64,000 nt of DNA from an uncultured Alphaproteobacteria bacterium (lineage in GTDB: Bacteria; Pseudomonadota; Alphaproteobacteria; Rhizobiales; Xanthobacteraceae): NCBI GenBank assembly GCA_963778925.1, contig CAVZWE010000020.1, positions 137,087 to 201,086 of the forward strand, written 5' to 3'. Below the pieces are notes generated by a model. The model did not search any database. It was not told the origin of the DNA and saw only the letters and a program-made list of their open reading frames with translations. Shown here one piece after another: positions 6,885-33,176 of this stretch. The stretch's first letter is position 1, and the number at the start of each line of letters is the position of its first letter. Made by a program: the position numbers and the translations under genes.

Positions 6885-6999
6885 TGGTTCGAGACGCCGC
6901 GCCTCCGCCCTTTGGGCTACGGCGGGCTCCTCACCATGAGGGTTTAAGACCTCATCCTGAGGAGCCGCACTCTTGTGCGGCGTCTCGAAGGATGAAGCC
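6885..6999. repeat. Rhizobial intergenic palindromic repeat (CCTCATCCTGAGGAG...GTCTCGAAGGATG family)
   Basis: Near-identical second copy at 34285-34382. Confidence 0.8.
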
Positions 7000-8505: not shown

Positions 8506-8594
8506 CGTCATGGCCGGGCTCGTCCCGGCCATCCACGTCTTTCTTGCCGCTCCACGTTAAGACGTGGATGCCCGGGACAAGCCCGGGCATGACG
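8506..8594. repeat. GTCATGGCCGGG...CCCGGGCATGAC palindromic intergenic repeat
   Basis: Long imperfect inverted repeat between convergent genes, typical of Bradyrhizobiaceae. Confidence 0.8.
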
Positions 8595-15102: not shown

Positions 15103-15591
15103 TTGATGCGCACGGTTCTCGACTACTGCAGCGGAGGAATTCAGCGAAACGTCCCTGCGGGGACGATCGTCATTCACGAGGGCGGCACCACAGGGCACCT
15201 CTTTGTGCTGATCGAGGGACGGCTCGAGGTCATCAAGGGCGATACCGTCGTTGCCGCCATCCATGAGCCGGGCGCGGTGGTCGGCGAAATGTCGGTCCTG
15301 CTCGACCAGCCCCATACCGCGACCGTCCGCGCCGCCTCGGATTCCCTGATCTACGAATTCGGCAATGCCGCATCGTTCCTGCGCGACCAGCCGGAGGTGG
15401 CGCTCCTGATCGCCCGGCTTCTGGCGCAGCGGCTCAATGTCGCCACCACCTATCTCGCCGACATCATGCATCAATATGCCGGCCACGGCGATCACCTCGC
15501 GATGGTCGGCGAGATCCTGCAGAGCATGATCAACCTGCCGCCGATCAGGGTCTCGCCGGGTTCGGATCGGCAATCCGACTCCAGACTTTGA
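15103..15591 (+). CDS. Cyclic nucleotide-binding domain protein (stand-alone)
   Basis: VIHEGG...LFVLIEGRLEV...GEMSVLLDQPHTATVRA. Confidence 0.85.
   Translation: MMRTVLDYCSGGIQRNVPAGTIVIHEGGTTGHLFVLIEGRLEVIKGDTVVAAIHEPGAVVGEMSVLLDQPHTATVRAASDSLIYEFGNAASFLRDQPEVALLIARLLAQRLNVATTYLADIMHQYAGHGDHLAMVGEILQSMINLPPIRVSPGSDRQSDSRL
15506..15585 (+). repeat. Direct repeat copy A (3' end of cNMP gene) of 33177-33256
   Basis: 67/73 identical by manual alignment to 33177-33249. Confidence 0.85.
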
Positions 15592-16406: not shown

Positions 16407-16478
16407 TTCCGCTCTTCCCCCGAAACCGGACGTCGCTCAATACGGTCGGCATGTCCGTTCGGTGCCAATTTCGGAAGT
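16407..16478 (+). repeat. Tripartite GTCCG repeat, units B and C
   Basis: TTCCGCTCTTCCCCCGAAACCGGACGT and ATGTCCGTTCGGTGCCAATTTCGGAAGT. Confidence 0.6.
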
Positions 16479-16564
16479 CCGCCAAATGTCATTTCTTGAT
16501 CCTCGTAGAGCACCAAAGAGAGACCGCCTCGCGGCGGTCTCTCCGAGTCCAACCAGTACTTTGA

Positions 16565-17164
16565 TCAAGCAGCTCGCTTGAACGCTTCCCATGCCGCCTC
16601 ATTGGCGCGATCGAAGGCAGCGCGCGTTTCCGTCAAAGCTGCCATAAGTGCGGACCATGACTGGGTCCCCGCCTGGTTCAACTTCTCGAGTTTCTTCTCC
16701 GCGTCGACTGCATCGGCGTTCATACGCTTCACGGCGGCGTCGATATCGCCCCGACGCTCAGAAGCGAATTTTTTGGCATCGCTGCCAAGCTTGTCGGCCG
16801 CTTCGCGCCACGCTTTCAATTGGGCATCGGCTTGAAGCTTGAACGTCGCCTGCTGGTGCTCGATTTGCTTGCCGAAGCTCTCGACATATTTCTTGACCTC
16901 GGCCTCGAACGAGCGCCAGTCATCCTCTAGTTTTGCCTTTGCCTGGATCCAGGCGGCCTCGTTAGCTTCCGACTGCTTCTTCATGGTGTCCCGGAAGTCA
17001 TCACGCTGCTTGCGCAGTTCAGCCAGAGTCTTCTCAGCCTTGTCGCGGACATCGGCCTGCACCTCGGCTACCTTGCCTTCAAGCGATGTCACTGCGGCGT
17101 CCATTTCATCAAGACGCTCCTTGGCCCAATTTGTAAAGAAGTGGGGATTGCTTTGCGTAACCAT
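16565..17164 (-). CDS. All-helical coiled-coil hypothetical protein (apolipoprotein/phasin-like)
   Basis: Ala/Glu/Lys/Gln-rich amphipathic sequence; RBS GAGGAG. Confidence 0.7.
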   Translation of the reverse strand: MVTQSNPHFFTNWAKERLDEMDAAVTSLEGKVAEVQADVRDKAEKTLAELRKQRDDFRDTMKKQSEANEAAWIQAKAKLEDDWRSFEAEVKKYVESFGKQIEHQQATFKLQADAQLKAWREAADKLGSDAKKFASERRGDIDAAVKRMNADAVDAEKKLEKLNQAGTQSWSALMAALTETRAAFDRANEAAWEAFKRAA

Positions 17165-17221
17165 TTGCTTATCTCCTCGCATGCCCCATTTTTCTGATTA
17201 ATATGCCGCGCCAAGCTATCT

Positions 17222-17235
17222 TTGATGTAAGTCAA
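17222..17235. promoter_or_regulatory. FixK/FNR box TTGATGTAAGTCAA
   Basis: TTGA-N6-TCAA, 58 nt upstream of the 17164 start. Confidence 0.6.
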
Positions 17236-17290
17236 CATCAAACCCAAGAGTAATCCTCGGTCTGACCGGACTTCACCTAAGAAGTTACGG

Positions 17291-17409
17291 AGGTCCGAAA
17301 TGGGTCAAACTCAGACCTCGGGGCGTATCTGAGGTAGGTCCGTTCGTCCCCCAACAACAGACATGAGGCGACTGCGGCAGCATGTCCGAAAGGTGCCAAA
17401 CGCAGACAT
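17291..17409 (+). repeat. Tripartite GTCCG repeat, complete A-B-C copy
   Basis: AGGTCCGAAATGGGTCAAACTCAGACCT (17291), AGGTCCGTTCGTCCCCCAACAACAGACAT (17336), ATGTCCGAAAGGTGCCAAACGCAGACAT (17382); spacing 45/46 nt. Confidence 0.7.
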
Positions 17410-17517
17410 CCCAACTCGCGGAACAATGATCGCCCTTCATGCACGGCTTTATCAGAAATCCCGGAGCGACCTCATTCCGTTGCTCGTGATTTGCTTACCA
17501 AACCTGGTCAGCGCCGA

Positions 17518-18369
17518 TCATGGCTTGGCAGGTGGGACAGCGCTTTCGGGCATCGGCATCTGCATATCCGAGGGCATAACCATGCTGCTGCCCCTCGGGA
17601 ATGTGGGAAGGAATCGGGGTGCCGCGATCACCACCACACCATAAACGACGAGAGCGGCCGCCGTCGCGCGAGCCGCCACGCGACCCCAAGGCAATGTTTT
17701 CTCCGCGAATATGACGAGCGTGATAACCGCCATGGCAGCGATATTCATGATGCCGAGTGGGAACAGGATGACGAACAGGAGCCAGCAACAGCCAAGGCAA
17801 TAGCCCCCGTGGAGCAATCCCATGCGCAACGCGCCCGCAGCACCGTCGCGCCACGATGTCATGATGAAGGTGATGGGCGTGCGGCACTTCGAAAGGCACA
17901 AGTCCTTCAAGGGTGTAAGCTGGTAGAGGCCCGCCGCGACGAGCACTATTCCGCCGACGCGGGCCGCGGTGGTCGGCGATAGCGCGGCACGCGCAGCAAC
18001 CGCCTCGGCGGCGAGCGCGCCGGCATAGGCTGCAACTCCCGACAGCCCCCACACCAAAAGGTATGTCACCGCGAATATCCAGGTTGAGACGAACGCTTCG
18101 CCGCGCTGTCGCTTGCCCGCCTGCACTTTATGGAAGGTGAGGATCATGGGCGCGGCAGTCGGAAACATCATGGCCACCATCATGATGACCCAGACCGCCA
18201 GGAACAGCGGCGCGCGCAGGCCCATGGTCGGCGAGTCCATCGCCATATCCATATCGGTGCCTGCGGCTTGCCAGACGAGCACCGCCCAAGCCGCTGCTGC
18301 GAGCGCCAGCAGCAAGCCCAAGATGACGTTACGTTGAAACGCGATCGGGCCCGTCTGGGTGCCGTCCAT
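17518..18369 (-). CDS. DUF2182 family metal-binding integral membrane protein
   Basis: WVIMMVAMMFP, YQLTPLKDLCLSKCR, GGYCLGCCWLL. Confidence 0.85.
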   Translation of the reverse strand: MDGTQTGPIAFQRNVILGLLLALAAAAWAVLVWQAAGTDMDMAMDSPTMGLRAPLFLAVWVIMMVAMMFPTAAPMILTFHKVQAGKRQRGEAFVSTWIFAVTYLLVWGLSGVAAYAGALAAEAVAARAALSPTTAARVGGIVLVAAGLYQLTPLKDLCLSKCRTPITFIMTSWRDGAAGALRMGLLHGGYCLGCCWLLFVILFPLGIMNIAAMAVITLVIFAEKTLPWGRVAARATAAALVVYGVVVIAAPRFLPTFPRGSSMVMPSDMQMPMPESAVPPAKP

Positions 18370-18438
18370 TTGAGCCTCCCTCGCGGCACCAGACCGCCGA
18401 TCTGGAAAATGGTCAACTTAGCGACGCGCGCAGCGCTG

Positions 18439-19059
18439 TTAGTTCGACCAGCTGATCGGCGCGTAATGGCCGTTCTTGCCGGAATTGTCCCAACGCATGC
18501 CGTGATCGGCGAAGGTGCTGCCCTTTGAGCCGACTGCCAGCGCGAGCTTGTCGGGCGCGGCCGGATGGCCAATCGTCGTCCAAATCTCACCGCTGCTATG
18601 CATGGTGGGCAGAGGCTCCACTGCCATATGCATGATGCCTGGGATTTCCGCCGAGCGGCTTTTGCCCGTGATGGCATATTTGATCGCCACTTTCTTCGCG
18701 CCGAGATGATTGCCAACCAAAGGCGCGAATGCCGCCATGGGGCCACCCTCCGCGCCGCTGAAGATGGCACCGAGCGCCGCGGTCTGTTGTTCATCAGCGC
18801 GCTCATCGATATAGGCCGCTAGCGTCCAGTTGCCTTCTCCCATGGCGCCCGGTGTATGGCCAACGACGGCAACGTTGAGCCCGTCCAGCGATATTTTGCC
18901 GTAACTGCCCTTGTCGATATGGAAGACGAGCGCAACGTCGCATACCCCCTGACTCGGCCGCGCCGTCAAAGGGGCGCTAGTCGAGACAAGGCATGGGCAC
19001 ACCACGTTGCAGTTGCAATTCTCGAAATAATCGCCAGACAGGTTCCATTTCGTTGCCAT
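18439..19059 (-). CDS. DUF1326 family protein
   Basis: W.LSGDYFENCNCNVVCPC; the usual partner of DUF2182. Confidence 0.85.
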   Translation of the reverse strand: MATKWNLSGDYFENCNCNVVCPCLVSTSAPLTARPSQGVCDVALVFHIDKGSYGKISLDGLNVAVVGHTPGAMGEGNWTLAAYIDERADEQQTAALGAIFSGAEGGPMAAFAPLVGNHLGAKKVAIKYAITGKSRSAEIPGIMHMAVEPLPTMHSSGEIWTTIGHPAAPDKLALAVGSKGSTFADHGMRWDNSGKNGHYAPISWSN

Positions 19060-19289
19060 CTGCTCCTCCTCCTATAACGGAAAACACGAATGATTTTAAA
19101 GACGCGCCGCAAATGCTCCCTCACTTGAATTCAATTTCCGGCTGGTCATCGCCAAGCGAGCCGTCTCTTGTCTACGCCCTAGGCGAGAATTTAGCATAAA
19201 TTCTTGAATGCCGAACAGCCGAATTGAGGCCAGTGTCACGCATCTTATCAAGTGGGTCTCCCCGCACTCATTCAATGTCTGAGATGGGT

Positions 19290-20008
19290 GTGCGCCGTGC
19301 AAAGGCGGCGCTTTCCAGTGGGTGCAAGCCCCACCCGGCAACCGCTCCAGCCGGAAGCAATCGGAGCAGTCATGGAGGTAACGAAGTGGCTGAAGCCTTC
19401 GATTAGCGTGTCACAAATTGGTGACAGCGCGAGTGTGCAGGCCGCAACGCGAGTGAACGCCGAGCAATCCTCGAAAAGGACAATGCGCAGGTCGACCCGA
19501 CAACCCTATCGGGGAAGACTGATACGTCTGGATGAAATGAGCGAAGCGATACGTTCAGACGCTGCGCCGGGGTAGTGGCGGCGGCATGTACACAAGGAAA
19601 GCGCACGAAACACGGGAAGCCCCAAGGCGTGGTCAGCGATGACCAACCGGAAGCCCGTGAGGGACAGGCTGGGCGCCCTGGGGTGGCGGAGAGGTTCGTA
19701 GTACCGCGGAAGCCGGGTAACTCCGGTGGAGGGAAGGGACCTCAGTTCAAGACCGACGCAATACGTGGTGAAGGACCTGGAGATTGGGCAACCTATCAAC
19801 TCCAATAAATGTTCAGAAGCCGCAGATGGCGTTGCACGCGAAAGCGTGAAGTCTTGTCCGAGAGCCGGATGCGGGAAATCTGCCTGTCCGGTTCGATGAG
19901 CGGGATGTGGAAACGGAGCCATGGCCGAACCAGTAAGGCACCGCCAGACGAAAGAGGCGGCAACAGATATGTTCTACCTAAAGCCACCGCGCCACATCTC
20001 AACTCTAC
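19290..20008 (+). mobile_element. ORF-less group II intron (719 nt; RT/maturase ORF deleted)
   Basis: 5' GTGCG; domain V GAGCCGGATGCGGGAAATCTGCCTGTCCGGTTC (19862-19894); long domain VI ending CTCAACTCTAC; only a 21-codon ORF stub [21 protein letters not shown] (19784-19849). Confidence 0.85.
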
Positions 20009-20074
20009 CAATTCGCGCCGATTTGACCGTAGGGCGATCACGTCCGGCGCGCGACACGATATGGGCGAGACGCA

Positions 20075-21340
20075 CTAGGACGATAGCGCGCGACAAATCC
20101 CGCGCTCGAATTGCCGATAGGCCTTGAGAGCTTGTCGGTCGGCGAAGGGGAGGATCTGCATCATGATCACGCCGGCGATCCGCGTCGTCGGGTCGATCCA
20201 GTAATATGTATTGAACAGACCGGCCCATGTGAGGCTGCCTGCCTTGCGCCCGTCGGGGACGGGATCGATATTGATCATGTGTCCAAGCCCCCATCGCAGC
20301 TGAACGCCCGGAAAAAAATCCACGTCGTTCGATAGCGCCGGGTTTGTCGTCTTGAGGATCCCCGCTTCGAGGTTACCGATCTGGTTTTCGGACATCAAGG
20401 CAACGGTCTCCGGCCGAAGGATACTTGTCTTGCGGAGGCTTCCGCCATTCAACAGCGCCTGCAGCAGGGTCAGATAATCCGGCGCCGTGGAATAGATGCC
20501 GCCTCCTCCGGAAAACACTTGCCGAACATTTGGCTTTTCCGGGGGCTGCGGAAGAAGTTTTCCATTCGGGTCCCTCACATGCAGACGGGCCTGACGCGCG
20601 CGCTGTTTCCCCGTGAGCGAGAAGCTGGTGTCGTTCATTCCGAGCGGTCCCGTGATGTGATCGCCGAAATAGCGATCGAGACTCTGCCCGCCGGCGATTT
20701 CCACCATCCGGCCGACCCGGTCCAGACTGCCGCCATAGGCCCACCTGGAACCAGGCTCGAACATCAGCGGCACGCGCGGCAAGGCGGGGTTATGGTGAGC
20801 AACCTTGAGATAGCGAACGACATTCGGATCCCAAAGCGGATAGCTGAACCCGGACGTGTGCGTCAGCAGGTTGCGCAGCGTTATGGGTTTTTGCGCCGGG
20901 TGCAGTTGCGGAACCCCTTTCGCATCGAAACCGGCGAGAACCTGGGCCGACCCGAGGGTCGGATCGATATTGCCGGCCGGCTCGTCCAGATTCAGCTTGC
21001 CGCGCTCCACCAGTTGCAGCGCGGCGACCGACGTCAGCAGTTTGACCATCGAGGCGATTCGGAAGATCGTGTCGAACGACATGCGTGACGCCGCGGTCAT
21101 GTCGCGGAAGCCGAACGCGCCTTCATAGACCACCGACTGTTCGTTTGCGGCCATCGCTATAACGCCGGGTATTTCCCTGGCGCTGACCCTTGCCTGCAAT
21201 GCTCTGTCGATCTCCTCCCTATGGGCCGGCTTGTTGAGAGGCGCGGCGATGCCAGTCGAAGGTGCGGCCGGAATCACGCTTGCGGATGCAAGAGCCGCTG
21301 TCCGCAATAGCGCGTCGCGTCGGGTGATCGGTCTTGTCAT
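20075..21340 (-). CDS. Serine hydrolase (beta-lactamase class C/esterase family), Tat-exported
   Basis: TRRDALL twin-arginine signal, SMVK (SxxK), [14 protein letters not shown]. Confidence 0.85.
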
Positions 21341-21626
21341 TTGCGCCTTGAAGGTGAGACTGCTGGCACTCCCGAGAGATACGGCAAGCGTCTCAAGAAA
21401 CACCGATAAACGGGCGCAAATCGCCTTGCTTGCTGTGCAATGCTACGACCGCTAGCTACCACCGATCAACCGCGTTTCTTTGGTTCATCGGCACAAAGTT
21501 GGCAGTATTGCGTGAGCAGCGGCAGGTGGATCTGGTTTGCTGCGAATAATTGGCCGCTCGGTCCATCCAAATCGTACCCGCTAATTTGTATACCAGGGCC
21601 TGAACTCAAGAATTCGCAGTGGTCGG

Positions 21627-21651
21627 ACGTCCGCTTTGCCCACTCTCCGAC
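21627..21651 (+). repeat. Tripartite GTCCG repeat, isolated degenerate unit
   Basis: ACGTCCGCTTTGCCCACTCTCCGAC upstream of sulP. Confidence 0.4.
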
Positions 21652-21740
21652 GAATTGATCAGACTGGTCTCGGTGCGGCAATGGTGACAGAACGAGCGCC
21701 GACGAGCAACTAAAGGCAAGACCTGCGGGAGGATTTCCAA

Positions 21741-23363
21741 ATGTCACAGTTCGCGATCACCCGCGGCGATATTTTCGGTGGCTTGACCGCCGGCGTTGTG
21801 GCCTTGCCTCTTTGTCTTGCGTTCGGTGTCGCCTCCGGATTGGGCGCTGCCTCCGGCCTGTATGGCGGCATCATATTGGGCATTGTGGCCTCGCTTCTGG
21901 GCGGCACTGCGGTTCAGGTGTCCGGTCCGACGGCGCCGATGACGTTGATCCTGGCGGGCGTCGTCGCAGTGAACACGCTTCCGACAGGGAAGGTGAATCT
22001 CTCCAATGTCTTCGGCGTCTTCGTTCTTGCTGGCGCGTTGCAGGCCTTGTTCGGGATCGCAAGGCTCGGGCGATATGTTCGCTTCCTGCCCTATCCGGTG
22101 ATCTCCGGCCTGATGACGGGGATCGGCATCATCATCATTATTCAGCAAATCTTCCCAGTAGCGGGTTTGGACTCGCCGTCCTCGAATCCTGTCGCGATTC
22201 TGCAGTCCCTTGGAGCCCTGCAGCACGGTGTCCGTCCGGGCGCGGTATTGCTCGCGGCGACCACGGTCGCGCTTGCTTTCCTGCTGCCCCGTATCGTTTC
22301 TTTCGTTCCGCCGTCTCTCGTCGCTCTCGTCGTGCTCACGATTATCGCCGCTGTCTTTGGGATTTCGGCTCCGACCATTGGCGATATAGCCGGCGGCCTG
22401 CCGCACTTCATCATCCCCAGTTTGGATTTTGCCGATCCCAAACTCATCATCACCGCTGCGTTTCAACTTGCCTTTCTTGGGTCGATAGACACCCTCACGA
22501 CATCGCTGGTCGCAGACAGCATCACCAGAACGCATCACGACAGCAATCGGGAACTTGTCGGGCAAGGTGTGGGCAACGTGGCTGCTGCCCTTTTCGGTGG
22601 AATTCCTGGCGCCGGTGCGTTCATGCGGACGGCCGTCAATATCAGGGCGGGCGGACGGCATCGTTCTTCCGGTATCATTCATGGTCTATTCCTGCTCGCC
22701 GTTTTGCTCGGCCTATCCGGCGTGGTGCGGTACATCCCCCATGCCGTCCTGGCAGGAATTCTGATCAGCGCGGGGTTGAGCATCATCGATTATCGCAGTC
22801 TCTCCCATCTCTCGAGCGCCCCACGCGCCGACATCATCCTCATGCTGCTCGTGGTCGTGTTGACGATTTTCACCGATCTGATCACAGCCGTCGGCATTGG
22901 CATGGTCGTCGCCTCCTTGATCTTCATGGCGTCCATTGCCGGGATCATGGAACAGAGGACGAAGCTCACGCTGATGGAAGACGAGCCATGGGCGGATGAA
23001 ATCGAAATTCCCGAAGAATTGAGGAATCGTTTGCTAATCAAGCACGTGGATGGCCCGCTATTCTTTGGCTTCGCCCAAGCCCTTCGCAAGGTTTCGGCCC
23101 AAGTGGCGGATGGAAGGATGCTCGTGCTGAGGATGGAACGGGTCTCCTATATGGACCAGTCGGGAATTTATGCCCTGCAGGACGTCCTGGTCGACCTCGA
23201 GGCCGCGAACCTGTGCGTCCTTCTGGTTGGCCTTCCCCAAAACCAAATCGACCGCCTTGAAGCGATGCAGGTGGTGCCGAATCTCATGCCGAGAGAGAAC
23301 GTCTTCGGCAAATTCGAGGCATTCAGGCGTGAGTTGCCTAGGATCGTCGAAAAACTCGGATGA
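21741..23363 (+). CDS. SulP/SLC26 family anion (bicarbonate/sulfate) transporter with STAS domain
   Basis: GLTAGVVALPLCLAFG, SGPTAPM, NRELVGQG, GPLFFG, MDQSG. Confidence 0.9.
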   Translation: MSQFAITRGDIFGGLTAGVVALPLCLAFGVASGLGAASGLYGGIILGIVASLLGGTAVQVSGPTAPMTLILAGVVAVNTLPTGKVNLSNVFGVFVLAGALQALFGIARLGRYVRFLPYPVISGLMTGIGIIIIIQQIFPVAGLDSPSSNPVAILQSLGALQHGVRPGAVLLAATTVALAFLLPRIVSFVPPSLVALVVLTIIAAVFGISAPTIGDIAGGLPHFIIPSLDFADPKLIITAAFQLAFLGSIDTLTTSLVADSITRTHHDSNRELVGQGVGNVAAALFGGIPGAGAFMRTAVNIRAGGRHRSSGIIHGLFLLAVLLGLSGVVRYIPHAVLAGILISAGLSIIDYRSLSHLSSAPRADIILMLLVVVLTIFTDLITAVGIGMVVASLIFMASIAGIMEQRTKLTLMEDEPWADEIEIPEELRNRLLIKHVDGPLFFGFAQALRKVSAQVADGRMLVLRMERVSYMDQSGIYALQDVLVDLEAANLCVLLVGLPQNQIDRLEAMQVVPNLMPRENVFGKFEAFRRELPRIVEKLG

Positions 23364-23429
23364 CCGGTTATTATCCACTTCGGCTCCTGAATCATCGATC
23401 AGAAGATCAATTGAGCGGCGCAGCGCGGA

Positions 23430-24161
23430 CTAGTCGCTCGGCTGCTCGATCCTTCCGGTGCGCTGAAAATGCGACATAAGCATCTGGCAAATCAGCGCCC
23501 ACGAAATGCCGAAGCACCAGCCCGCCAGCACATCGCTCGGATAATGAACTCCAAGATATATCCGGCTGACTCCGACCAACAGGGCCAGGATCGCGGCGGT
23601 CATTATAAGATGGATGCGAACTGAGCGGGAAGCTTGCGTCTGAGCCAGCATCAAGCCGAGCGTCAGATAGCAGACAGACGAAATCGCTGCGTGCCCGCTC
23701 GGAAAGCTCGGCGTAGAGACCTGAGTGAGTGGAGTGACGAGATCGGGGCGCACTCGCGCAAAGGCAAGCTTGAGAAGGGTGTTGAGAAATGTGCCGCTCA
23801 GGACCGTCGTCAGGACGAACAAAGCGGCTCGACGTTTGCCTGCGGTAAAAAGGAACGTGGTTACGATTGTGACCAGCAGTGCAAGTACCGCGGTACTGCC
23901 CAGTGCGGTGATGTCTCGCACAACGTCGAGCAACCATGGCGGCCCGATTGGTCGCGACAAGTCGGACGCTTGGCGAAAGGCGACCATCAACCAGCGGTCG
24001 AACGCGATAGGCTCTCCTTCGGTCACCTCCTGTGCGATGAACGCAAAACCGAACAGGAGAACGGCGACGAATAAGGCCGGAGCCCAAGACCTCAGATGCC
24101 CGGCAGCATTCTGCGGTTCAGTCGTTCTCATCTTCGTCGCCTCCGGGAACTCAACTTCCAT
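23430..24161 (-). CDS. PAP2 family phosphatase
   Basis: KLAFARVRP, SFPSGH, SRIYLGVHYPSDV; start uncertain (24161 or 24131). Confidence 0.85.
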   Translation of the reverse strand: MEVEFPEATKMRTTEPQNAAGHLRSWAPALFVAVLLFGFAFIAQEVTEGEPIAFDRWLMVAFRQASDLSRPIGPPWLLDVVRDITALGSTAVLALLVTIVTTFLFTAGKRRAALFVLTTVLSGTFLNTLLKLAFARVRPDLVTPLTQVSTPSFPSGHAAISSVCYLTLGLMLAQTQASRSVRIHLIMTAAILALLVGVSRIYLGVHYPSDVLAGWCFGISWALICQMLMSHFQRTGRIEQPSD

Positions 24162-24275
24162 CAAGTACGAGAGGGTGTTCAGGTCGGCGTGCTGGAGGCC
24201 AGCCGGGATGAAGCTGCGGGTTTTCGAGTGGTCTACTCGCATACACGGTATTGGGAACTCGGCGTCGCGCCGGGT

Positions 24276-26165
24276 TCAAATCGCAAATTGTCGTCCAATC
24301 TCGACAACCTCGTCCCTCGGCAGCTTGAAGTAGTCGATCGCCTCGCTCGAATTGCGTAACATGAACGAAAACACGACCTCTACCAGCCACGGCAGTCCCT
24401 TGCCGTCCTTGCGCCTGACGACCGTCTCGCGCCCGATGTAATAGGTCACTGAGCCATCGACCGGGTAGCCCTCCGCGCGTGCACGTTCCAGCAAGGCCGG
24501 GAGGTCGGGCTGCTCCATGAAACCGTAATGAGCCTGGTTTCGCCACACTTGCGGGCCGATCTGGCGCACGTCCAGCCGGTCCTCCTCTGCGACGTAGGGG
24601 ATCATCTCGGTGACAACATTGAGGATCCCGACTGAATCGTGCAGCGCGTGAGTGTGCCGGAGGTGCCAGACCACGAGCGGCGGAATCTCGCGCGTGACGC
24701 GTGCCACGAACACAGCGGTGCCCGGCACGCGCCGAATCTCGCCGCTGTCGATCTGCGCCACGATATCGCCGATCGGAATCTGAGGTTCATCCGCCAATGC
24801 GTGCACCGCGGTGCGGCCCACTTGCCAGATCCGCATCAACGTGAAGACAGCGATGGCAAACAGCACGGGCACCCATCCGCCGTCGGCAAACTTCAACATG
24901 TTGGCGGACAGGAAGGCTCCCTCCACCGTGGCAAACCCGACGCCAATTGCGATCACCGCCGGCAGCGGCAAACCCCAGATCTCGCGTAGCGCGATCGAAA
25001 GAAGGAAGGTCGTCAGCACCATGTCCGCCGACACAGCTATTCCATAGGCGGCGGCCAGGTTCTCCGAGCTTCGAAAGCTGATGGCAAGCGCGAGCGTTGC
25101 AGTCATGAGCAGCCAGTTCACCGCGGGCACGTAGATCTGGCCAAATCCCTCGGCCGAGGTCTGGACGATTCGCATCCGCGGCAGGCAGCCGAGCTGGATC
25201 GCCTGGCGTGTCATCGAGAAGGCGCCCGTGATGACCGCCTGGCTGGCGACGGCGGTTGCAATCGTGGCGAGGATGACCAGCGGCAGCAGCAACACCGGCG
25301 CGGGGCAGAGACGAAAGAACAGACTTCCCTCGACCGCCCCACCGGCCAGCACGAGCGCCGCCTGCCCCGCATAATTCAGAACCAGCGCCGGGAAAACCAC
25401 GCACCAGCCCAACCGGATTGGCGCCCGGCCAAAATGGCCGAGGTCGGCATAGAGCGCCTCCGCCCCGGTGACACAAAGGAACACGCCGCCGAGCACCAGC
25501 ATGACGTTGCCACCACCGGAAAACAGGAAGTGCAGCCCCGGTGCCGGATTGATGGCCCATAACACGGCCGGATACTGTGCGATCCCCCACAGGCCGAGCA
25601 GGGCGAGCACCGCGAACCAGGCCGCCATGACCGGCCCCAGGAATCGACCGAGCACAGCCGTCCCACGTTGCTGCACGGCGAACAAAGCGGCGAGAATCGC
25701 CACGGTCCCCGGCAGTACGAAGCGGTCGAGCTCAGATGCTATGACGTCCAACCCCTCCAATGCCGACAGCACCGAGATCGCCGGCGTGAGGGCGCAGTCG
25801 CCGTACACCAGCGCCGCGCCGAACATGCCGATGAACAAGACGGGGCGCCGTCCCGGCTTCCGGCTCAGCAGCGCCATCAATGCGAGAACGCCACCTTCGC
25901 CTTCATTGTCCACCCGTAGCGCCAGGATGATGTACTTTACCGTCGTGATGATGATGAGCGTCCACACAATCAGCGACAGCGAGCCGAGGACGGCCTCCGG
26001 CGCGGGATGCTTGCCCGTGGCACCAAGCACGACCTTGAGCGTGTAGAGCGGGCTTGTGCCAATATCGCCATAAACTACGCCAAGGGCGGCCAAACTCAGC
26101 GCAGAGAGGCTGTGCCCTGAATGGTGCGGAGAGGCCTTGTTTGTTTCAACGGCCATTTGAACCAT
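24276..26165 (-). CDS. kup: KUP/HAK/KT potassium transporter
   Basis: GVVYGDIGTSPLY, GEGG, GAEALYADLGHF, GQIYVP, AAAYGIAV. Confidence 0.92.
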   Translation of the reverse strand: MVQMAVETNKASPHHSGHSLSALSLAALGVVYGDIGTSPLYTLKVVLGATGKHPAPEAVLGSLSLIVWTLIIITTVKYIILALRVDNEGEGGVLALMALLSRKPGRRPVLFIGMFGAALVYGDCALTPAISVLSALEGLDVIASELDRFVLPGTVAILAALFAVQQRGTAVLGRFLGPVMAAWFAVLALLGLWGIAQYPAVLWAINPAPGLHFLFSGGGNVMLVLGGVFLCVTGAEALYADLGHFGRAPIRLGWCVVFPALVLNYAGQAALVLAGGAVEGSLFFRLCPAPVLLLPLVILATIATAVASQAVITGAFSMTRQAIQLGCLPRMRIVQTSAEGFGQIYVPAVNWLLMTATLALAISFRSSENLAAAYGIAVSADMVLTTFLLSIALREIWGLPLPAVIAIGVGFATVEGAFLSANMLKFADGGWVPVLFAIAVFTLMRIWQVGRTAVHALADEPQIPIGDIVAQIDSGEIRRVPGTAVFVARVTREIPPLVVWHLRHTHALHDSVGILNVVTEMIPYVAEEDRLDVRQIGPQVWRNQAHYGFMEQPDLPALLERARAEGYPVDGSVTYYIGRETVVRRKDGKGLPWLVEVVFSFMLRNSSEAIDYFKLPRDEVVEIGRQFAI

Positions 26166-26483
26166 TGCAGCCCCAAACCGGGATGTCGGGTGCCGAGGGA
26201 TTGCCCCCGCCACCCTCTCTCGCAGTATCCGAATGGATTTCCGGACCGCCCGAGGCTTGGGCAACCATTGCCGGTCCAGATTGATCTGGATCAAAAGAAC
26301 ACAACGCCAGGCGCTTCCCGGCCCCGGCACCTTCGTGGAAAAGTCGTGGGAGATCCTGGAAATGAGCTGCGCATTTCGCCGCTGCACACGAGCATGCAGG
26401 GCAAGCCCAAGCGAGTTGGCCGTCGTTCAAATTGGAACAAGATCGGGAAACACGGGCACGCCTATGCGACGACGCCCGCGCCG

Positions 26484-26915
26484 TCAACGCGCGGCGTTGT
26501 AGACATCACGCAGGACGTTGGTCTCAAGCTCCAGATCCTTCAGTCGATGCTTGACTACATCGCCGATGCTGACGATACCGGCCAGCTTGCCGCCGCGCAG
26601 TACCGGCATGTGGCGCACGCGATGGTGCGTCATCAGGTTCATCACGCGATTGACACTCTCGTCCGGGGACACGGTGGTCACACCGTATTGCATGACCTCC
26701 TTCACAGTCATCGACCCGGCTGTCTCGCCATAGCGAGAAAATGCATGGACGATTTCACGTTCGGAAATGAGACCAAGAATTTCGTCCCCGCTCGTCACCA
26801 CGAGAGCGCCAATATTCTTTGCGCGGAGCCAGTCCGCCGCTCTCTTGATGCTGGCTTCCGGAGCTATTGTTGTGACGTCGGTGCCCTTCCGCCTCAGAAT
26901 GCTTTCGATGGACAT
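26484..26915 (-). CDS. CBS domain pair protein
   Basis: Two CBS repeats, RVRHMPV, GIVSIGDVVK. Confidence 0.9.
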   Translation of the reverse strand: MSIESILRRKGTDVTTIAPEASIKRAADWLRAKNIGALVVTSGDEILGLISEREIVHAFSRYGETAGSMTVKEVMQYGVTTVSPDESVNRVMNLMTHHRVRHMPVLRGGKLAGIVSIGDVVKHRLKDLELETNVLRDVYNAAR

Positions 26916-27094
26916 AGCCTCCTCCCATCGTTTGGCCTAGCCGCCTATCTCATTGATTTGCGGTCTCGCCCCCGCAATTGGGAAGCAATTGGGGGGCATG
27001 GAAGCCGTTCTCCACTTTAGCTTATCATATCGGCAGGAAGCAGTCAGCAAGCATCGGGGACCGCGCAACCGATCAGTCGTTGGCAAGCTTGTGC

Positions 27095-27204
27095 GTGACC
27101 GGTTCGGGTCATTCGTGCCGTGTTGGGGACCGGTTGAGCCGGCACCCGAAAAGCGGACATTCTCGGGTTTCTCCAACATGTTACAAACGTGCCAAAGCTG
27201 TGCC
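27095..27204 (+). repeat. Tripartite GTCCG repeat, A-B-C copy
   Basis: GACCGGTTCGGGTCATTCGTGCCG, CACCCGAAAAGCGGACAT, ATGTTACAAACGTGCCAAAG. Confidence 0.6.
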
Positions 27205-27399
27205 GATATATGGCTTCGGTCTGAACGGGAACCTGCCGCCTGCGAGCATGGCTCGCGCAGCCCGACCGCGTCGCGCTGCTTCGACAGCGTATTCCTAAAC
27301 TTCTTCCCGTCCTTCACAATGACGACTAAATTCTTCGCCGGATCCTCCGGCAATTGATATCTGCGATCGGATCGCCCCGCTCATTCGAAGGCGACGTAA

Positions 27400-28848
27400 A
27401 TGGCAATTCATGCTCGCTTGCGGACCCCTGTCCATTTCGCGGTTGCATTGCTTTCGTCGGCCTGTGCTTTTCATGCCGTCGTGCAGGCGGCGTCGCCGGT
27501 GCCCGACGGAGTGTCTCTCAGCGTGTCGGCGATTACGTGGAGCACCGTCAAATACGCGACCGATGCGGAGAACGGATTCGTCAGCGGGTCGCTCGACAAG
27601 AAGACCATCGTCGATCGCACATTCAGCACCCGCGTGCTCGAGAATCGTTATCTGAAGGTAACGCTCGTGCCCGAATTCGGCGGGCGAATTCTTTCCATCA
27701 TTTACAAGCCGACCGGCCACGAACAACTTTATCGCACGGAAGTAGGCGTGCCTTACGGGATCGAGGGCGGCAATTTCTATTACGACTGGCTGATGGTGTA
27801 TGGCGGCATCTTCCCGACATTCCCGGATGCCGAGCACGGCAAGACCTGGCTGAAGCCGTGGGATTTCAGGGTGGTGAAGGAGAGCGCCGGCGAAGTGACG
27901 GTGTCGATGTCGCTGAAAGACGATTTCGCATATGCGGGGGCGCCGAGGAAATTCAGGCCGGGCTCGACGGGCATCGAAGCGACGACCTACGTGACGCTGA
28001 AAGCCGATCGCGCCGCGCTCGATGTGCGCGTAGTGCTGAAAAATCCGCAAGACAAGACGATCGACTACGAGTACTGGACCTGCACGACGCTGGCTCCGGG
28101 ATCGGACCCGAAAAATCCCAAAACGACCGGCGGGGCCGAAATCATCGCGCCGATCCGGGCCTACCGAACGGCCGACTGGTCGGCCAATCTGTCCGACGGC
28201 GACAACAGTTTAGGCATGGGCACGAGCCGCTTCGAAAGACTGCGCTATTTCAAGAACTGGCCGACGATGGGCATCGCATATGCCGCGCCGGACATGCAGG
28301 GCGGGAATTTCTGGGGCGTAATCAACCATGACAACGAAGAGGGGATCATCCGCATCGCCGACAATACCGTCACGCCGGGCCTGAAAATGTGGACGTGGGG
28401 ATTTCCGTCGTTTACGAACGAAACCGACGCACGCAAAGACCCGAACGAACAACGACCTTACATCGAATTATGGGCAGGCGTGTCGGACCAGTTTTTCCAC
28501 AGCGCCAGGTTTTCCGCACTGGGCGAAGTGTCGATTCCGGAAACCTACAGCCCGACCGTCGGCATCAGCAACGTGACGCATGCGAACGAGAACATCCTGA
28601 TCAATCTCTCGGCCGATACGTCCGGCGTCAAACTTCAGTTCTTCAGTATCGAACCGGCCACGCCGTTGCGCGTAACGTTGAAACGCGGCGACGCGGTATT
28701 GTTCGACGACGCCGTGAAAGCCGACCCGAAAAACGGAAATGGTATTTCCGCGACGATTCCTGCCGGCGGCAGCGGCGAACAGGTACAGCTGACGATCAGG
28801 ACCGCAGAGGGTAAAGAGCTGATCGCGGCCGCGACAAAAATAAAATAA
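27400..28848 (+). CDS. Secreted DUF5107-like (aldose-epimerase/carbohydrate-binding fold) protein
   Basis: Signal peptide; VLENRYLKVTLVPEFGGRILSI, GGIFPTFP..EHG, ELWAG. Confidence 0.65.
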   Translation: MAIHARLRTPVHFAVALLSSACAFHAVVQAASPVPDGVSLSVSAITWSTVKYATDAENGFVSGSLDKKTIVDRTFSTRVLENRYLKVTLVPEFGGRILSIIYKPTGHEQLYRTEVGVPYGIEGGNFYYDWLMVYGGIFPTFPDAEHGKTWLKPWDFRVVKESAGEVTVSMSLKDDFAYAGAPRKFRPGSTGIEATTYVTLKADRAALDVRVVLKNPQDKTIDYEYWTCTTLAPGSDPKNPKTTGGAEIIAPIRAYRTADWSANLSDGDNSLGMGTSRFERLRYFKNWPTMGIAYAAPDMQGGNFWGVINHDNEEGIIRIADNTVTPGLKMWTWGFPSFTNETDARKDPNEQRPYIELWAGVSDQFFHSARFSALGEVSIPETYSPTVGISNVTHANENILINLSADTSGVKLQFFSIEPATPLRVTLKRGDAVLFDDAVKADPKNGNGISATIPAGGSGEQVQLTIRTAEGKELIAAATKIK

Positions 28849-28885
28849 ATTCTTGCCGATTGCCCTATTCAAACGCAGCGGGTTG

Positions 28886-29665
28886 TCATCGCAACGCCGC
28901 CCGCACCTTGCGCTTGAGGTCGAGGCTATTGCTATCGACGGCAACCACCCTTTCGTCATTCGCATCCTCGAAATTGGTCACGACCACCTTGAGTTCCGCG
29001 TTGGGCAGGTACTTCAGTTGCGGGTCGTTCCAGTCGCCATAACGTGGCTGAAGGGTCAGTTGCTGCTTCTCGCGCGGCTCCAGGCCGCCCTTGAAGGTCT
29101 GAACGAATTCCTGCTTGGCCCAGGGAATAGTCCGGTTCGGTGTCGTCAGAACGCTTGAGAAGTAAATGCGCGAGATAGGGAGCTTGCCGCTATTGCGAAC
29201 CTCAAACTCGATAACAGGTTGTTCGAGATAGCCGCTTCTCCGCCAGTAATATCTTGGAGAAGTAACTTCGACAGACCCCAATACGTTTCCGACATTCTGC
29301 AGCCTTGCCTCGGTCTCCGAAATTTCGGCGTCCAGTTTGATGGAGAGGTTCTGTATGATAGCGGAGGCGCTGCTGCCATTGATCCTTGGCCCAAGCCGGC
29401 TGAGGATTGTGTATGGATTTGCAAACCCCTTGGCGGTCATGTTGCCGAGCTGTTGTCCGTCGAGTTCAATTCTGGGCGTGCTTTCGATCAATAGATACCC
29501 CAGCGCAATCTGCAGACGGCGCAGGTCATCGTTGCTCAGCTTTGCTTTTATGGCAGCCAGGCTCCTTTGATAGGCATCCCAGCTCGATGTGTCGAAAACC
29601 GGATCGAAGATGCAACCTGAGAGCAAAAGGCAATACAGGATGGTCAGGCTCAACCGCTTCATCAT
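28886..29665 (-). CDS. Hypothetical lipoprotein
   Basis: Lipobox LLSGC after a short hydrophobic leader. Confidence 0.7.
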   Translation of the reverse strand: MMKRLSLTILYCLLLSGCIFDPVFDTSSWDAYQRSLAAIKAKLSNDDLRRLQIALGYLLIESTPRIELDGQQLGNMTAKGFANPYTILSRLGPRINGSSASAIIQNLSIKLDAEISETEARLQNVGNVLGSVEVTSPRYYWRRSGYLEQPVIEFEVRNSGKLPISRIYFSSVLTTPNRTIPWAKQEFVQTFKGGLEPREKQQLTLQPRYGDWNDPQLKYLPNAELKVVVTNFEDANDERVVAVDSNSLDLKRKVRAALR

Positions 29666-30044
29666 CTTGTCCGCTTGTGATCGTTGCAGGTACCGCCAGC
29701 ACGCCGGATTTCAGCAACGGTTCTTTAGGTGCAAGCCATCAACAAAAGATTGAGTGAATCGGTCCGCACCTGTCATTACTTAACAAATCGTGAATTTGTC
29801 CGGAGCCGGTGCTGCGCGGGTAGCGGTCACGACTACTGAGGGTCAATCGCCACAGAAACGCGACGTCCGCACCACGTCAGGTTTTCTCCAATGGCTACCG
29901 AAGAACGAACATCGCTGGAAGTTTAAAACGCGCGGTGTCGACGACTGTCCACTGGGGAAGGGCGGAGCCCTTCCTCTGAGAGCGACTTGGCTCAGATCCC
30001 GCAACAGCCCAGACATTGATCGTCGGCACCCTGTCGAAACATCG

Positions 30045-30194
30045 TCATCGGGACATATTTTCCGGCAAATTCCAGAATGCGTGGATGGCTTCGATCGAAG
30101 GAAACTCGAACGCCACCTTCGGCTGCTCACCGGGTTGGCGCTCCAGGACTTTAACCCTCCCGCCCCTGGTCGAAAACGTCCCAACGAATTTCAT
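30045..30194 (-). pseudogene. DUF1330 family fragment
   Basis: TRGGRVKVLE...FEFPSIEAIHAFWN; N-terminus and C-terminus missing. Confidence 0.5.
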
Positions 30195-30541
30195 GAAACT
30201 GACTTCCAGCGCTGTTTGTCTGAAGGCGGCTAACGTCCGCGATCGGATCAATCACGTCATCCCAAAGGTGCGAAGCTTACTTACGGTCTTCCCTCAACGG
30301 CGGACCAAGCGAAACTCGCGGGCAAGTGCGTTTCGTGCCGGAAGGGCGACATTTTGGTTATAAAACAAACAAATGCGAGTTATTTTGTGTTGCTGTTCCG
30401 GTCAGCGGGATCTCAAAACGTCATGGGGAAACATGAGCCGTTCGGGACGCTCGTTTCATCGGCACAGGACAATACTGTCGGTTATCAAATACAGCCGCTC
30501 ATCGCGCGCTATCAGGTGATCGGTGTTAGGAGCGTGAGCTC

Positions 30542-31903
30542 TTGAATTTCAATTCGCTGGAATTCCTGGTCCTTTTTTTGCCCATAACGTTTGTGGCATT
30601 CTATGCCGTGCCTATGCGACTGCGACTCTGGGTTCTAGTCGCCGCCTCACTGGTCTTCTACGGGATTTCGGGACTTGAAGTCCTCCTCGCCTTCCTGATC
30701 GCGATAATTTGGGGCTACTGCACGGCCTTTTTGCTCGTAAAATGGCAAAGACCGTCGACGATCATTGTCGCGATCTCGCTGCCGGCCATGATCCTGATCA
30801 TGTTTAAATATCTGACGTTCATCATGGATAATATTCATGCCGGGCCGCAGGTGCGGGACCATTTCTGGTTCTTCTTAAGCATCTTGTTGCCGGCCGGTAT
30901 CAGCTTTTATACGTTTGAGATCGTGTCCTATTCGCTCGATGTCGCCGACGGAAAGATCGAGCCTGACCGCGACCTGCTGCGTTTCGCCAGCTTCACTTCG
31001 TTTTTCCCGCATCTGATCGCCGGACCGATCATGCGCTATGCGGATATGCGGCAACAGTTACAGATCCTTCAATCCACGCAGATTCTCAAACCGAAGGTCG
31101 TTTCCGGCCTGAAATTGCTGTCGATTGGTCTGTTCTTCAAAATCTTTGTCGCGGACATCAGCGGAATGAAGGTTGCGAAGGCGACGAACATCCCGCTTGA
31201 GCGACTAACGGCGATTGATCAGCTCACGCAAATACAATTCTGGGCCTCACAGATCTATTACGATTTCTGGGCATATTCGGTGATGGCCATTGGCCTCGGT
31301 CGGCTGTTCTGTATCGAACTGCCAGTCAATTTCCGCCAACCCTATCTCTCCAGGAACCCCCGTGAATTCTGGCAGCGTTGGCACGTTACCCTGTCATATT
31401 GGCTGCGCGATTACGTGTATATCCGGATGGGTGGCCGCGACGCGTACGTCCGAAACATTCTGATGGTGTTTGCGCTCGTCGGCTTGTGGCACGGGGCGGG
31501 CTGGAATTTTGTGGTTTGGGGTATCTATCACGCGATTCTGGTCATCGTGTACCACTTCACCGCATCGGCGTGGGACCGCTTGCCGCAACCGATCGCCATT
31601 GCGTTGACCTTCATCCTGGTGAGCTTCGGCTGGCCGCTCTTTTTCCTCAGCTTGGAAAAGTATGCCCTGTTTCTCGGCCATCTTGCGACGGCACCCTGGC
31701 ACATGGCGGTTTATCGTCCGACCGACTGGCTGTATCTTGCCGCGATCGGGATCGTGACCTTCGGCCTACGCGAGCGGAATTGGCTTTATAGCGAGGCAGG
31801 TGGTCGCAACATTACGGATTCGCCGATAGTTTTGGCCTTTCTGATGTTCGGCGGGTTGTTGTTCCTGTCGTGGAGCAGCACCTTCATCTACTTCCGGTTT
31901 TGA
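30542..31903 (+). CDS. MBOAT family O-acyltransferase (AlgI/DltB-like)
   Basis: LPAGISFYTFE, FPHLIAGPI, YYDFWAYS, FWQRWHVTLS, GLWHGA. Confidence 0.92.
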   Translation: MNFNSLEFLVLFLPITFVAFYAVPMRLRLWVLVAASLVFYGISGLEVLLAFLIAIIWGYCTAFLLVKWQRPSTIIVAISLPAMILIMFKYLTFIMDNIHAGPQVRDHFWFFLSILLPAGISFYTFEIVSYSLDVADGKIEPDRDLLRFASFTSFFPHLIAGPIMRYADMRQQLQILQSTQILKPKVVSGLKLLSIGLFFKIFVADISGMKVAKATNIPLERLTAIDQLTQIQFWASQIYYDFWAYSVMAIGLGRLFCIELPVNFRQPYLSRNPREFWQRWHVTLSYWLRDYVYIRMGGRDAYVRNILMVFALVGLWHGAGWNFVVWGIYHAILVIVYHFTASAWDRLPQPIAIALTFILVSFGWPLFFLSLEKYALFLGHLATAPWHMAVYRPTDWLYLAAIGIVTFGLRERNWLYSEAGGRNITDSPIVLAFLMFGGLLFLSWSSTFIYFRF

Positions 31904-31905
31904 AG

Positions 31906-33060
31906 ATGGCAGTGGCCGAACAAGATCAACGCCACTGGGTCACGGTGTTCGGGGCTACCCTAGCGATACTGGTTGGAGTTGCAATTTGGTTGAACCTGTG
32001 GATCCCGAGTTTTCGGGATCCCGCGTTCAACTTCTATGCCATGAAACCGGGCGAGATCTTCAACGTATATGGCCTGACCCGACGCCAGGAAGGGTCGGTG
32101 AAGCTTGGTTTCGCGGAAGCCTATCCAGGACCGGAGATCGGGCTTTATGGCAATCACATCGTCGCGTTCTTTGGTGCAGACGCGTTCGGGCGTCCGGAAG
32201 ACGCAGAATATTTCTTCAACTACTTCTATGCAAACCTGTCACTGCCAGAAATCCATCGCTATCTGCTTCGTGTTGAGCAAACCGGCCATCTGCCGAAGAA
32301 ATTGATCCTGGTGCAAATCACGCCGCCAAACGCAGACAATGGTCGTTTCATCATAGATTTCGGCAATGAGTTGCCACCGAGCGTACTCCTGAGCGGCTTT
32401 GGACGAGACAAACTTTCGATGAACCCTCTGCCGATCGGCGCCGCGGCGTGGGAGCTTGCCGACAACTGGCTGCATGAAGTGTTGAATTACGACACTTTCA
32501 TATTGAGCATAGCTCAGAGCGGAAATTATGCGGACCGCACCGTCAGCCCGTCGACGTGCCATGATGAGACCTCCGCATGGCTGAGCCGCCTGCCAGACAA
32601 GCTGTTGATGCGGATCGGAGGGTCCGCAAGATCTCGTTTATTCTGTCTGCGGCGGCTGTGGGCCTATGCATTCCGCCGAGATGGTTCGAATGCTGAATTC
32701 TTGCAGCCTGATGAAGCGTTCGTCGTTCCGAATGAAGACCCGCTCAGAGAAGCCGAGCGTGGTTTGCGCGCCGGCGATGAACGTGAAATTGCCAGCCAAA
32801 TGCGGGCCATAAACGCTGTTGGAGCCCGCCATGGCATCAAAGTAGTATTCATGGTGCCGCCGGTCTATGAAACAGATCGGCACGATAGCGTCGTCAATCA
32901 GATATTCAGCCGCGCGCTTGCTCTTGTCCCGGATATTGCCGTGATCGACCACCGCAATATGCACAGCAACCCGTCGCTCTTCAGGAGCGTGATTCACCCG
33001 TCACCTCTGTATTATCGCTTGGTCGTCGACGAGCTTCGCCGCAGCGGCTTCATCGACTGA
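31906..33060 (+). CDS. Membrane-anchored partner of the MBOAT (SGNH/AlgJ/DltD-like)
   Basis: N-terminal TM, GxHI..FG, VFMVPP, terminal ..HP motif; coupled to the MBOAT stop. Confidence 0.55.
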   Translation: MAVAEQDQRHWVTVFGATLAILVGVAIWLNLWIPSFRDPAFNFYAMKPGEIFNVYGLTRRQEGSVKLGFAEAYPGPEIGLYGNHIVAFFGADAFGRPEDAEYFFNYFYANLSLPEIHRYLLRVEQTGHLPKKLILVQITPPNADNGRFIIDFGNELPPSVLLSGFGRDKLSMNPLPIGAAAWELADNWLHEVLNYDTFILSIAQSGNYADRTVSPSTCHDETSAWLSRLPDKLLMRIGGSARSRLFCLRRLWAYAFRRDGSNAEFLQPDEAFVVPNEDPLREAERGLRAGDEREIASQMRAINAVGARHGIKVVFMVPPVYETDRHDSVVNQIFSRALALVPDIAVIDHRNMHSNPSLFRSVIHPSPLYYRLVVDELRRSGFID

Positions 33061-33107
33061 ATCCCTTGAGCAAAAAGATTCGCCGTGTCCAGTAGGGCCG
33101 AGGAGGG

Positions 33108-33176
33108 AAGTCCCCTCCGGGTCATTCGCGCCGATCGTGCGATGTCAATTCGGAGTCCGGTCTGTCCTCGATCACT
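33108..33176 (+). repeat. Tripartite GTCCG repeat, units A and B, at right edge of the 17.6 kb region
   Basis: AAGTCCCCTCCGGGTCATTCGCGCCGAT, then GAGTCCGGTCTGTCC 45 nt later. Confidence 0.55.

Follow-up and report, generated by a model that had tools for sequence, protein, structure and literature searches.

The 64,000-nt stretch of DNA analyzed here (the window) carries a 719-nt ORF-less group II intron, and the data indicate that a non-autonomous, endonuclease-less intron of the IIB type very probably retrohomed into the head of a dispersed tripartite repeat. Directly observed were the intron boundaries, the three pairings with the exons, the identical insertion position in independent repeats, and a common deletion in domain IV. 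The site would have been selected by pairing of EBS2 GGACA with IBS2 TGTCT, of EBS1 ACCC with IBS1 GGGT, and of EBS3 G with IBS3 C. Since repeat heads supply most of the cognate sites, the lineage would in effect home to the repeat.

The intron ends were set where similarity to more than 60 independent copies stopped. This placed the 5′ end at GTGCG (19290) and the 3′ end at ...CTCTAC (20008), with C20009 opening the 3′ exon. Full-length relatives on Microvirga and Paraburkholderia plasmids were approximately 1985 nt long, with an ltrA gene in domain IV; the window aligned with them from 19290 to approximately 19846 and again from approximately 19836 to 20008, where the similarity ended. Rfam RF02003 (D1-D4) matched at 19316-19452 with 99.9 bits, and the Rfam domain V/VI match at 19860-19934 fell slightly below the threshold. 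The 3′ end placed by Rfam at 19934 was rejected: homology among independent copies continues through 20008, and the Rfam end is wrong because domain VI here is approximately 110 nt long. The intron and its 3′ domains are as follows.

19290-20008, plus strand: ORF-less group II intron, GTGCG...CTCTAC
19834-19849, plus strand: domain IV stub, the remnant of the deletion that took the RT/maturase ORF; its hairpin CACGC-GAAA-GCGTG spans 19835-19848
19862-19894, plus strand: domain V (GAGCCGG...CCGGTTC), found with Rfam RF00029 and plastid D5 models
19898-20005, plus strand: long domain VI, read from the sequence; homology of the full-length relatives reaches 20008

Domain V starts with GAGC and has a 5-nt GAAAT loop closed by GCGG/CUGC. 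Approximately 108 nt, conserved in relatives, lie between domain V and the intron 3′ end. The basal helix of domain VI, GAG-C-GGGATGTGG / CCACATCTC-AA-CTC, leaves A20001/A20002 bulged, 6-7 nt from the 3′ end (...TAC). The element has the 5′ GUGYG, the D1-D4 core, the domain V AGC triad, the bulged A in domain VI and the 3′ AY of a group II ribozyme. At 19492/19518, in a domain I helix, the sublineage of the window has T/A where relatives have C/G, a compensatory U-A pair which argues that the fold of the intron RNA stayed under selection. A scan with a 34-mer specific to this sublineage found seven close relatives, and T19492/A19518 marks a clade seen in seven other loci at 89-98.6% identity.

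Relatives were collected by two genome-collection scans, one with the intron 3′ end and one with the EBS1 hairpin, and by a plasmid search, yielding 133 intron 5′ ends and 149 3′ ends. Their hosts were Bradyrhizobium, other soil Alphaproteobacteria, Betaproteobacteria, and more distant phyla. Covariation was assessed as mutual information in a domain I alignment of 128 copies. The exon-recognition elements in the window are the following.

19276-19280, plus strand: IBS2 TGTCT (−14 to −10 in the exon); its pairing with EBS2 GGACA includes one G-U
19286-19289, plus strand: IBS1 GGGT, exon positions −4 to −1; covaries with EBS1
19478-19482, plus strand: EBS2 GGACA; mutual-information peak between −12 and 19480
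19496-19513, plus strand: domain I hairpin CCCGA-CAACCCTA-TCGGG, with EBS1 ACCC in the loop at 19503-19506
19575, plus strand: EBS3 G; pairs with the first base of the 3′ exon
20009, plus strand: IBS3 C; pairs with EBS3

The highest mutual information was found for the position pairs −1/19503, −2/19504, −3/19505, and −4/19506, with standard pairs in 82-93% of the sequences. The EBS1/IBS1 pair classes were ACCC/GGGT (88), GCCA/TGGC (6), and CCCC/GGGG (2), and in distant relatives the loop was complementary to the exon of the same copy (TTTCGG/CCGAAA, GTTAC/GTAAC, GCGGAC/GTCCGC, and TACAG/CTGTA). The initial annotation had described the stem-loop at 19496-19513 and noted that its ACCC is complementary to the GGGT next to the insertion. 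That stem-loop is present, its stem was paired in 46-56 of 60 distinct sequences, and the covariation with the last four exon bases across 128 relatives identifies the loop as EBS1. Compensatory double changes were also detected in EBS2/IBS2 (GGTCG with CGACC; TGCCG with AGGCA). The EBS3 position was G in introns where the first 3′-exon base (+1) was C (58) or T (2), T where it was A (three introns), and C where it was G (one). EBS1 and EBS2 pairing with the 5′ exon, together with a separate EBS3 pairing with +1, represent exon recognition of the IIB type. The ACCC-loop introns occupied 101 distinct sites, whose 5′ exons have the consensus (A)(A)TGTC(C)G(C)(T)nnGGGT, and IBS1 was GGGT at 92 of them. 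The conserved exon positions −9 G and −16/−15 A, which have no pairing partner, could reflect protein contacts or merely the repeat consensus.

The repeat is approximately 125 nt long, with the consensus CTAATGTCCGATTTGGGT|CAAACGCGTCGTTTTGACCG in unit A (the bar marks the insertion point), ..CACTTCCGGTCTACCCCGATGAACGGACAT in unit B, and ..GGCATGTCTCAAAGGTGCC in unit C. A 17-mer search for unit A yielded 3 matches in the window against 0.6 expected, which is weak alone, and it was therefore replaced by a profile of the whole repeat, seeded from uninterrupted copies in related loci and refined once. Removal of the intron gave joined exons exactly as first annotated, ATGTCTGAGATGGGT|CAATTCGCGCCGAT around the junction; over a longer distance they read ATGTCTGAGATGGGT|CAATTCGCGCC...CACGTCCGG, or ATGTCTGAGATGGGT|CAATTCGCGCCGATTTGACCG...CACGTCCGG, with ACGTCCGG at 20039-20046. 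The intron-removed window matched the whole-repeat profile over positions 9-64 (nhmmer, E=3.3e-7), the interrupted copy being truncated after early unit B.

19272-19289, plus strand: 5′ half of the interrupted tripartite repeat (head of unit A), nhmmer profile positions 9-26
20009-20047, plus strand: 3′ half (rest of unit A and unit B start CACGTCCGG), nhmmer profile positions 27-64

The junction at profile position 26|27 was identical in 17/17 other intron-bearing repeat copies, which belong to other genomes. The proposal that the intron lies precisely inside unit A was borne out by this junction and by the profile match; its extent needed correction, as the intron is one base shorter than had been implied. 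The remaining copies and fragments of the repeat in the window are as follows.

16407-16479, plus strand: repeat fragment, units B and C only (nhmmer E=2e-8)
17284-17413, plus strand: complete uninterrupted repeat (nhmmer E=3.6e-26)
27098-27196, plus strand: uninterrupted repeat, whose unit A had been placed at 27095 (nhmmer E=1.1e-10)
30226-30352, plus strand: divergent repeat copy (nhmmer E=6e-5)
33105-33172, plus strand: partial repeat, whose unit A had been placed at 33108 (nhmmer E=0.003; exact 17-mer at 33119)

The two unit A copies of the initial annotation are present, at coordinates (33119-33135 and 27106-27120) that lie 11 nt to the right of 33108 and 27095. The head of the complete repeat at 17284-17413, GGTCCGAAATGGGT|C, is a near-cognate empty site in which IBS2 is matched at 4/5 positions, IBS1 at 4/4, and IBS3 is matched. 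The empty near-cognate heads in the window (17296-17311, 27098-27112, and 33105-33123) have GGGT + C intact and IBS2 at 4/5. All six copies and fragments (16407-33172) lie on the plus strand and several neighboring genes on the minus strand; the chance of six same-strand repeats under random orientation is approximately 0.03. The shared orientation may reflect the direction of replication. The GC skew of the window was approximately 0, so the replication strand could not be inferred.

The repeat is short, non-coding, and present in many copies, with six copies or fragments in 64 kb and 45 profile matches in 1.67 Mb of loci. Among 72,556 PLSDB plasmids, it was found on Bradyrhizobium plasmids only, where it is unannotated, and an Rfam scan of six loci with complete repeats returned no family for it. 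Partial inverted repeats were visible by eye in the repeat alignment. A genome scan with TGTCCG-N5-GGGT, which samples the head variant with +1 spacing (the cognate is N4) and so informs on distribution and not on the occupancy of cognate sites, gave 79 matches. Forty-one were uninterrupted repeats, located in Bradyrhizobium, Xanthobacteraceae, Pseudolabrys, and soil alphaproteobacterial MAGs, and the remainder look like chance matches. REP-type repeats described in Bradyrhizobium include Br-REP1 and Br-REP2 (PMC5082802) and the GTAG- and CGTC-tagged REPs (PMC3733652); these are short, intergenic, many-copy, and genus-typical, and so is the tripartite repeat. TGTC/CGTC-led REP units with CCCC loops are reminiscent of its unit B. 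Identity with Br-REP1 or Br-REP2 was ruled out, as CCGGAATCTCGAGATTCCGG and CGAGATTCCGGGTTCGGCTCTTCGAGCCGCCCCGGAATGA (PMC5082802) are absent from the repeat consensus.

Other short repeat families in the window are unrelated to the tripartite repeat. They comprise one palindrome of 36 nt (perfect-type) and three repeats, direct or inverted, with two copies each at 93-100% identity (8506-8594; 6923-6965 and 34308-34350; 34181-34218 and 52608-52645; 52585-52609 and 58708-58732). There is also a 73-nt direct repeat of 92% identity at 15506-15578 and 33177-33249. Its second copy begins 5 nt past the partial tripartite copy (33105-33172) and may represent the terminus of a paralogous gene on the minus strand.

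The joined exons matched the repeat profile in 17/65 intron copies with both flanks, and the junction was always at 26|27. Among the 17 copies with both flanks available that were at least 91% identical to the domain I of the window, 12 sit in the repeat. The profile was also applied to the 3′ exon alone, which shares just its first base with anything that the intron RNA pairs with; 11/149 copies matched in register compared with 0/2000 random 200-nt segments from the same loci. Insertions in the tripartite repeat are thus a minority in the wider intron family by this strict test, and the profile is conservative: several more 3′ exons (CAAAAGG..., CATTTTCGACC...) are plainly variants that resemble the repeat. 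A conserved GGGT|CA target, anticipated in the initial annotation, is shared by the closest homologous introns, in the same repeat. Introns 97-98.6% identical to that of the window occupied other repeat copies in other Bradyrhizobium genomes. Bradyrhizobium sp. AUGA SZCCT0283 (L237) carries an intron of 98.6% identity with an empty cognate head 1.7 kb away. Full-length autonomous relatives were found at the same repeat position as well, for example, in B. valentinum (L149) and at L203.

The intron RNA specifies approximately 10 bases, in the pattern TGTCY-N5-GGGT|C. Uninterrupted cognate sites numbered 29 across the 2.28 Mb of loci retrieved, against approximately 15 expected from composition, and 20 of the 29 were heads of the tripartite repeat, in register. 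The head consensus, ATGTCCGnnnnGGGT|CA, fits all three EBS pairings perfectly. Most cognate sites are thus provided by the repeat, and no special mechanism is needed to explain why the intron is associated with it.

Sister lineages, with EBS1 GCCA or other loops, occupied sites like ..GTCCGTTGTTGGC|CCAAAGCGCC and ..TGTCCGCTATGCCC|CCGATAGCG. The 5′ exon ended in TGGC and the 3′ exon began with CC... at L061, L073, L099, L065, L112, L117, L119, and L183, and the sites of L058:445 and L066 were GCCC/GCCT | CC.... These sites resemble the heads of further repeats from the same superfamily, and EBS1 may have diversified, following the variants of the repeat head. In betaproteobacterial MAGs (Accumulibacter; L221, L217, L128, L138, L192, and L130), members of the intron family follow heads like GAATGACCGCAATGGGT|C, often with a tandem GAA(C/T)G(T/A)CCGCTT motif before them. 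The sequences suggest an analogous repeat family in Betaproteobacteria.

It is conceivable, although improbable, that the intron and repeat families are evolutionary partners, not a parasite and its passive target. Equally improbable is what such a partnership would entail, namely that the conserved head ATGTCCG..GGGT|CA (TGGC|CC and GCCC|CC in the sisters) persists or spreads by means of the intron machinery. The repeats might, for example, be copied by the intron reverse transcriptase or be selected as decoys that spare genes, and the intron would diversify EBS1 to track the head variants. If true, this would make Bradyrhizobium a natural LINE/SINE-like system of group II introns and REP-like repeats.

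We regard it as very unlikely that the intron came to lie in unit A by coincidence, that is, that any TGTCY-N5-GGGT|C site is used and that the likeness to unit A is the IBS requirement seen twice. The RNA indeed specifies just those few bases, chance alone would give approximately 15 such sites in 2.3 Mb, many members of the intron family lie outside the tripartite repeat, and the 17-mer test was weak on its own. However, the match in the window runs 38 nt into the 3′ exon (profile 27-64), past any base that the RNA pairs with, and both the 3′ exons alone (11/149 in register against 0/2000 controls) and the close relatives with both flanks (12/17 in the repeat) tie the intron to the repeat beyond its IBS.

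Still less likely is an IIC-attC-like intron that recognizes a structured recombination site, with the repeat as a functional mobile-DNA site. This parallel had been drawn in the initial annotation. In its favor, insertion occurs at one exact point of a conserved repeat, and a short inverted repeat, GGTCAAA...TTTGACC, surrounds that point in many repeat copies. The remaining evidence has largely refuted it. EBS2 is present and covaries, as does EBS3, whereas class C introns have no EBS2 (PMC3753933), and the ribozyme of approximately 700 nt with a long domain VI contrasts with the roughly 400-nt IIC form. Folded as single-stranded DNA, the joined target demonstrated no hairpin (z = −0.89, with 36/200 shuffles folding at least equally well), and the insertion lies inside the head, not after a hairpin. 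In addition, relatives with another EBS1 occupy unrelated sequences that match their own EBS1. The presence of the intron had further been read as an independent sign that the repeat functions as a mobile-DNA site; what it shows is an abundant head that carries approximately 10 paired bases. The least likely account is that the repeat halves travel with the intron as a composite unit or that the locus is a segmental duplication. L001 and the window do have approximately 15 nt of flank in common on each side. Across copies, however, flank similarity is only approximately 70-80% and tracks the repeat consensus, against 90-98% for the introns themselves; repeats without an insertion are frequent (five in the window); and beyond the repeat the sequence is unrelated in every copy.

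Retrohoming by base pairing into an abundant repeat head is therefore preferred, by an intron that has lost its protein gene. Twenty ORF-less copies of 717-734 nt, at different sites, have one common deletion junction in domain IV. In full-length copies the ORF lies between two direct copies of a 6-nt sequence, GAAGGC, and a single deletion between them appears to have produced the ORF-less form, whose junction reads ...CACGCGAAAGCGAAGGC|GTGAAG. A further 7-nt loss in the subgroup of the window produced the GAAA-capped domain IV hairpin. The short form was found at different repeat copies across genomes and twice in one MAG (L035 and L120, in different repeat copies), indicating that it multiplied after the gene was lost. 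Full-length relatives (L002 and L003) encode a protein of 427-441 aa that has RVT_1 and GIIM only, with no endonuclease domain. The recurrence of one domain IV deletion at different sites suggests that ORF-less copies are mobilized by a protein acting in trans. Points against the preferred account are that no full-length intron was detected within the 64-kb window, that IBS2 in the window has a G-U pair, and that the repeat copy is cut short.

The domain IV stub at 19826-19849 retains codons from near the start of the lost RT gene together with its stop codon, which form a 7-codon mini-ORF (ATG GCG TTG CAC GCG AAA GCG TGA). Other ORF-less copies have 7 extra bases that put this mini-ORF out of frame, and that of the window is therefore probably incidental. 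Oversized intron copies were found at L185 (2634 nt), L179 (1640 nt), L143 (2759 nt), and L153 (3414 nt); the arrangement at L185 is twintron-like, with the D1D4-4 intron enclosing another intron that belongs to a different Rfam type (D1D4-6). In an Isosphaeraceae MAG (L031, at approximately 820 on the minus strand), the ...CTCTAC end of an intron abuts the GTGCG of the next copy, head-to-tail.

The window copy would have arrived by reverse splicing and reverse transcription, with the RT/maturase presumably supplied in trans by a full-length relative. As for other endonuclease-less introns, entry would have been into single-stranded DNA at the replication fork. Insertions in the repeat are harmless because the repeat is intergenic and many-copy. 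The intron is flanked by two genes on the minus strand, at 18439-19059 (a DUF-like ORF) and at 20075-21403 (a serine hydrolase/beta-lactamase-like ORF), and runs antisense to each of them; it may therefore lack transcription here, and this copy could be an inert fossil. A search of sequencing runs with a 1,601-base query matched only soil metagenomes, in which 34-39% of the sampled words of the query were present; these matches probably cover only the intron part, which makes up approximately 45% of the query. The matched runs included no isolate or RNA sequencing data.

With six copies or fragments in 64 kb, the repeat heads give the intron lineage a large pool of neutral sites per genome, and the ORF-less mini-form has spread across many Bradyrhizobium-type genomes. 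As a natural case, the system bears on how introns without an endonuclease can multiply and yet leave the host unharmed, on how non-autonomous introns persist, and on the nature of the still unnamed tripartite repeat of Bradyrhizobium. In addition, EBS1, EBS2, and EBS3 are assigned exactly for an intron class that has been little studied, which is useful for retargeting.

In class F (IIF) introns, the domain V loop measures 5 nt, the ribozyme 450-700 nt when the ORF is left out, domain VI is long and structured, and the protein has no endonuclease (PMC3753933). The intron of the window has the 5-nt domain V loop, a ribozyme of 719 nt without ORF, and a long structured domain VI, and the protein of its relatives has no D/En domains. 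We therefore describe it as class-F-like, a placement by these features. It resembles class F also in an IIB-like ribozyme of approximately 700 nt, in EBS1 and EBS2 located in domain I with IBS1/IBS2 just upstream of the splice site, and in an intron-encoded protein with RT and X domains only; it differs in that the window copy has no ORF. The g3 group of class F includes D.a.I1 of Dechloromonas aromatica and Ni.ha.I1/I2 of Nitrobacter hamburgensis (PMC3552965), and the hosts of this group (Nitrobacteraceae and Rhodocyclales) overlap or adjoin those of the relatives found here. In the literature on class F, no paper was found that describes a repeat as the homing site.

A 2015 review of the target habits of bacterial group II introns lists specific homing sites, terminators, and attC sites (PMC4424553). 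IIC introns insert after terminators and IIC-attC introns at integron attC sites (PMC4424553), and like them the intron of the window is inserted at a recurrent non-coding motif outside genes. Those introns, however, are without EBS2, much smaller, and dependent on a DNA stem-loop, none of which is true here. In Thermosynechococcus elongatus, ORF-less group II introns are mobilized in trans (PMC2882425), and short introns without the protein gene are likewise found at several sites beside ORF-bearing relatives. The lineage of the window differs in the apparent origin of its ORF-less form from a single deletion and in being spread over many genomes, and mobilization in trans is here an inferred property.

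Its behavior is closest to that of RmInt1, a class D intron of Sinorhizobium meliloti that homes into ISRm2011-2, or of E.c.I4, which homes into IS3-family elements (PMC1802570, PMC3522654). These introns are endonuclease-less (RmInt1) or IS-targeting, and they share with the present lineage EBS-IBS homing to a many-copy, dispensable sequence and spread within the genome. They belong to other intron classes, and their target is a transposase gene in an insertion sequence, whereas here it is a non-coding dispersed repeat of approximately 125 nt. The mechanism seen in the window is thus a conventional one, and what is undescribed is this kind of homing site.
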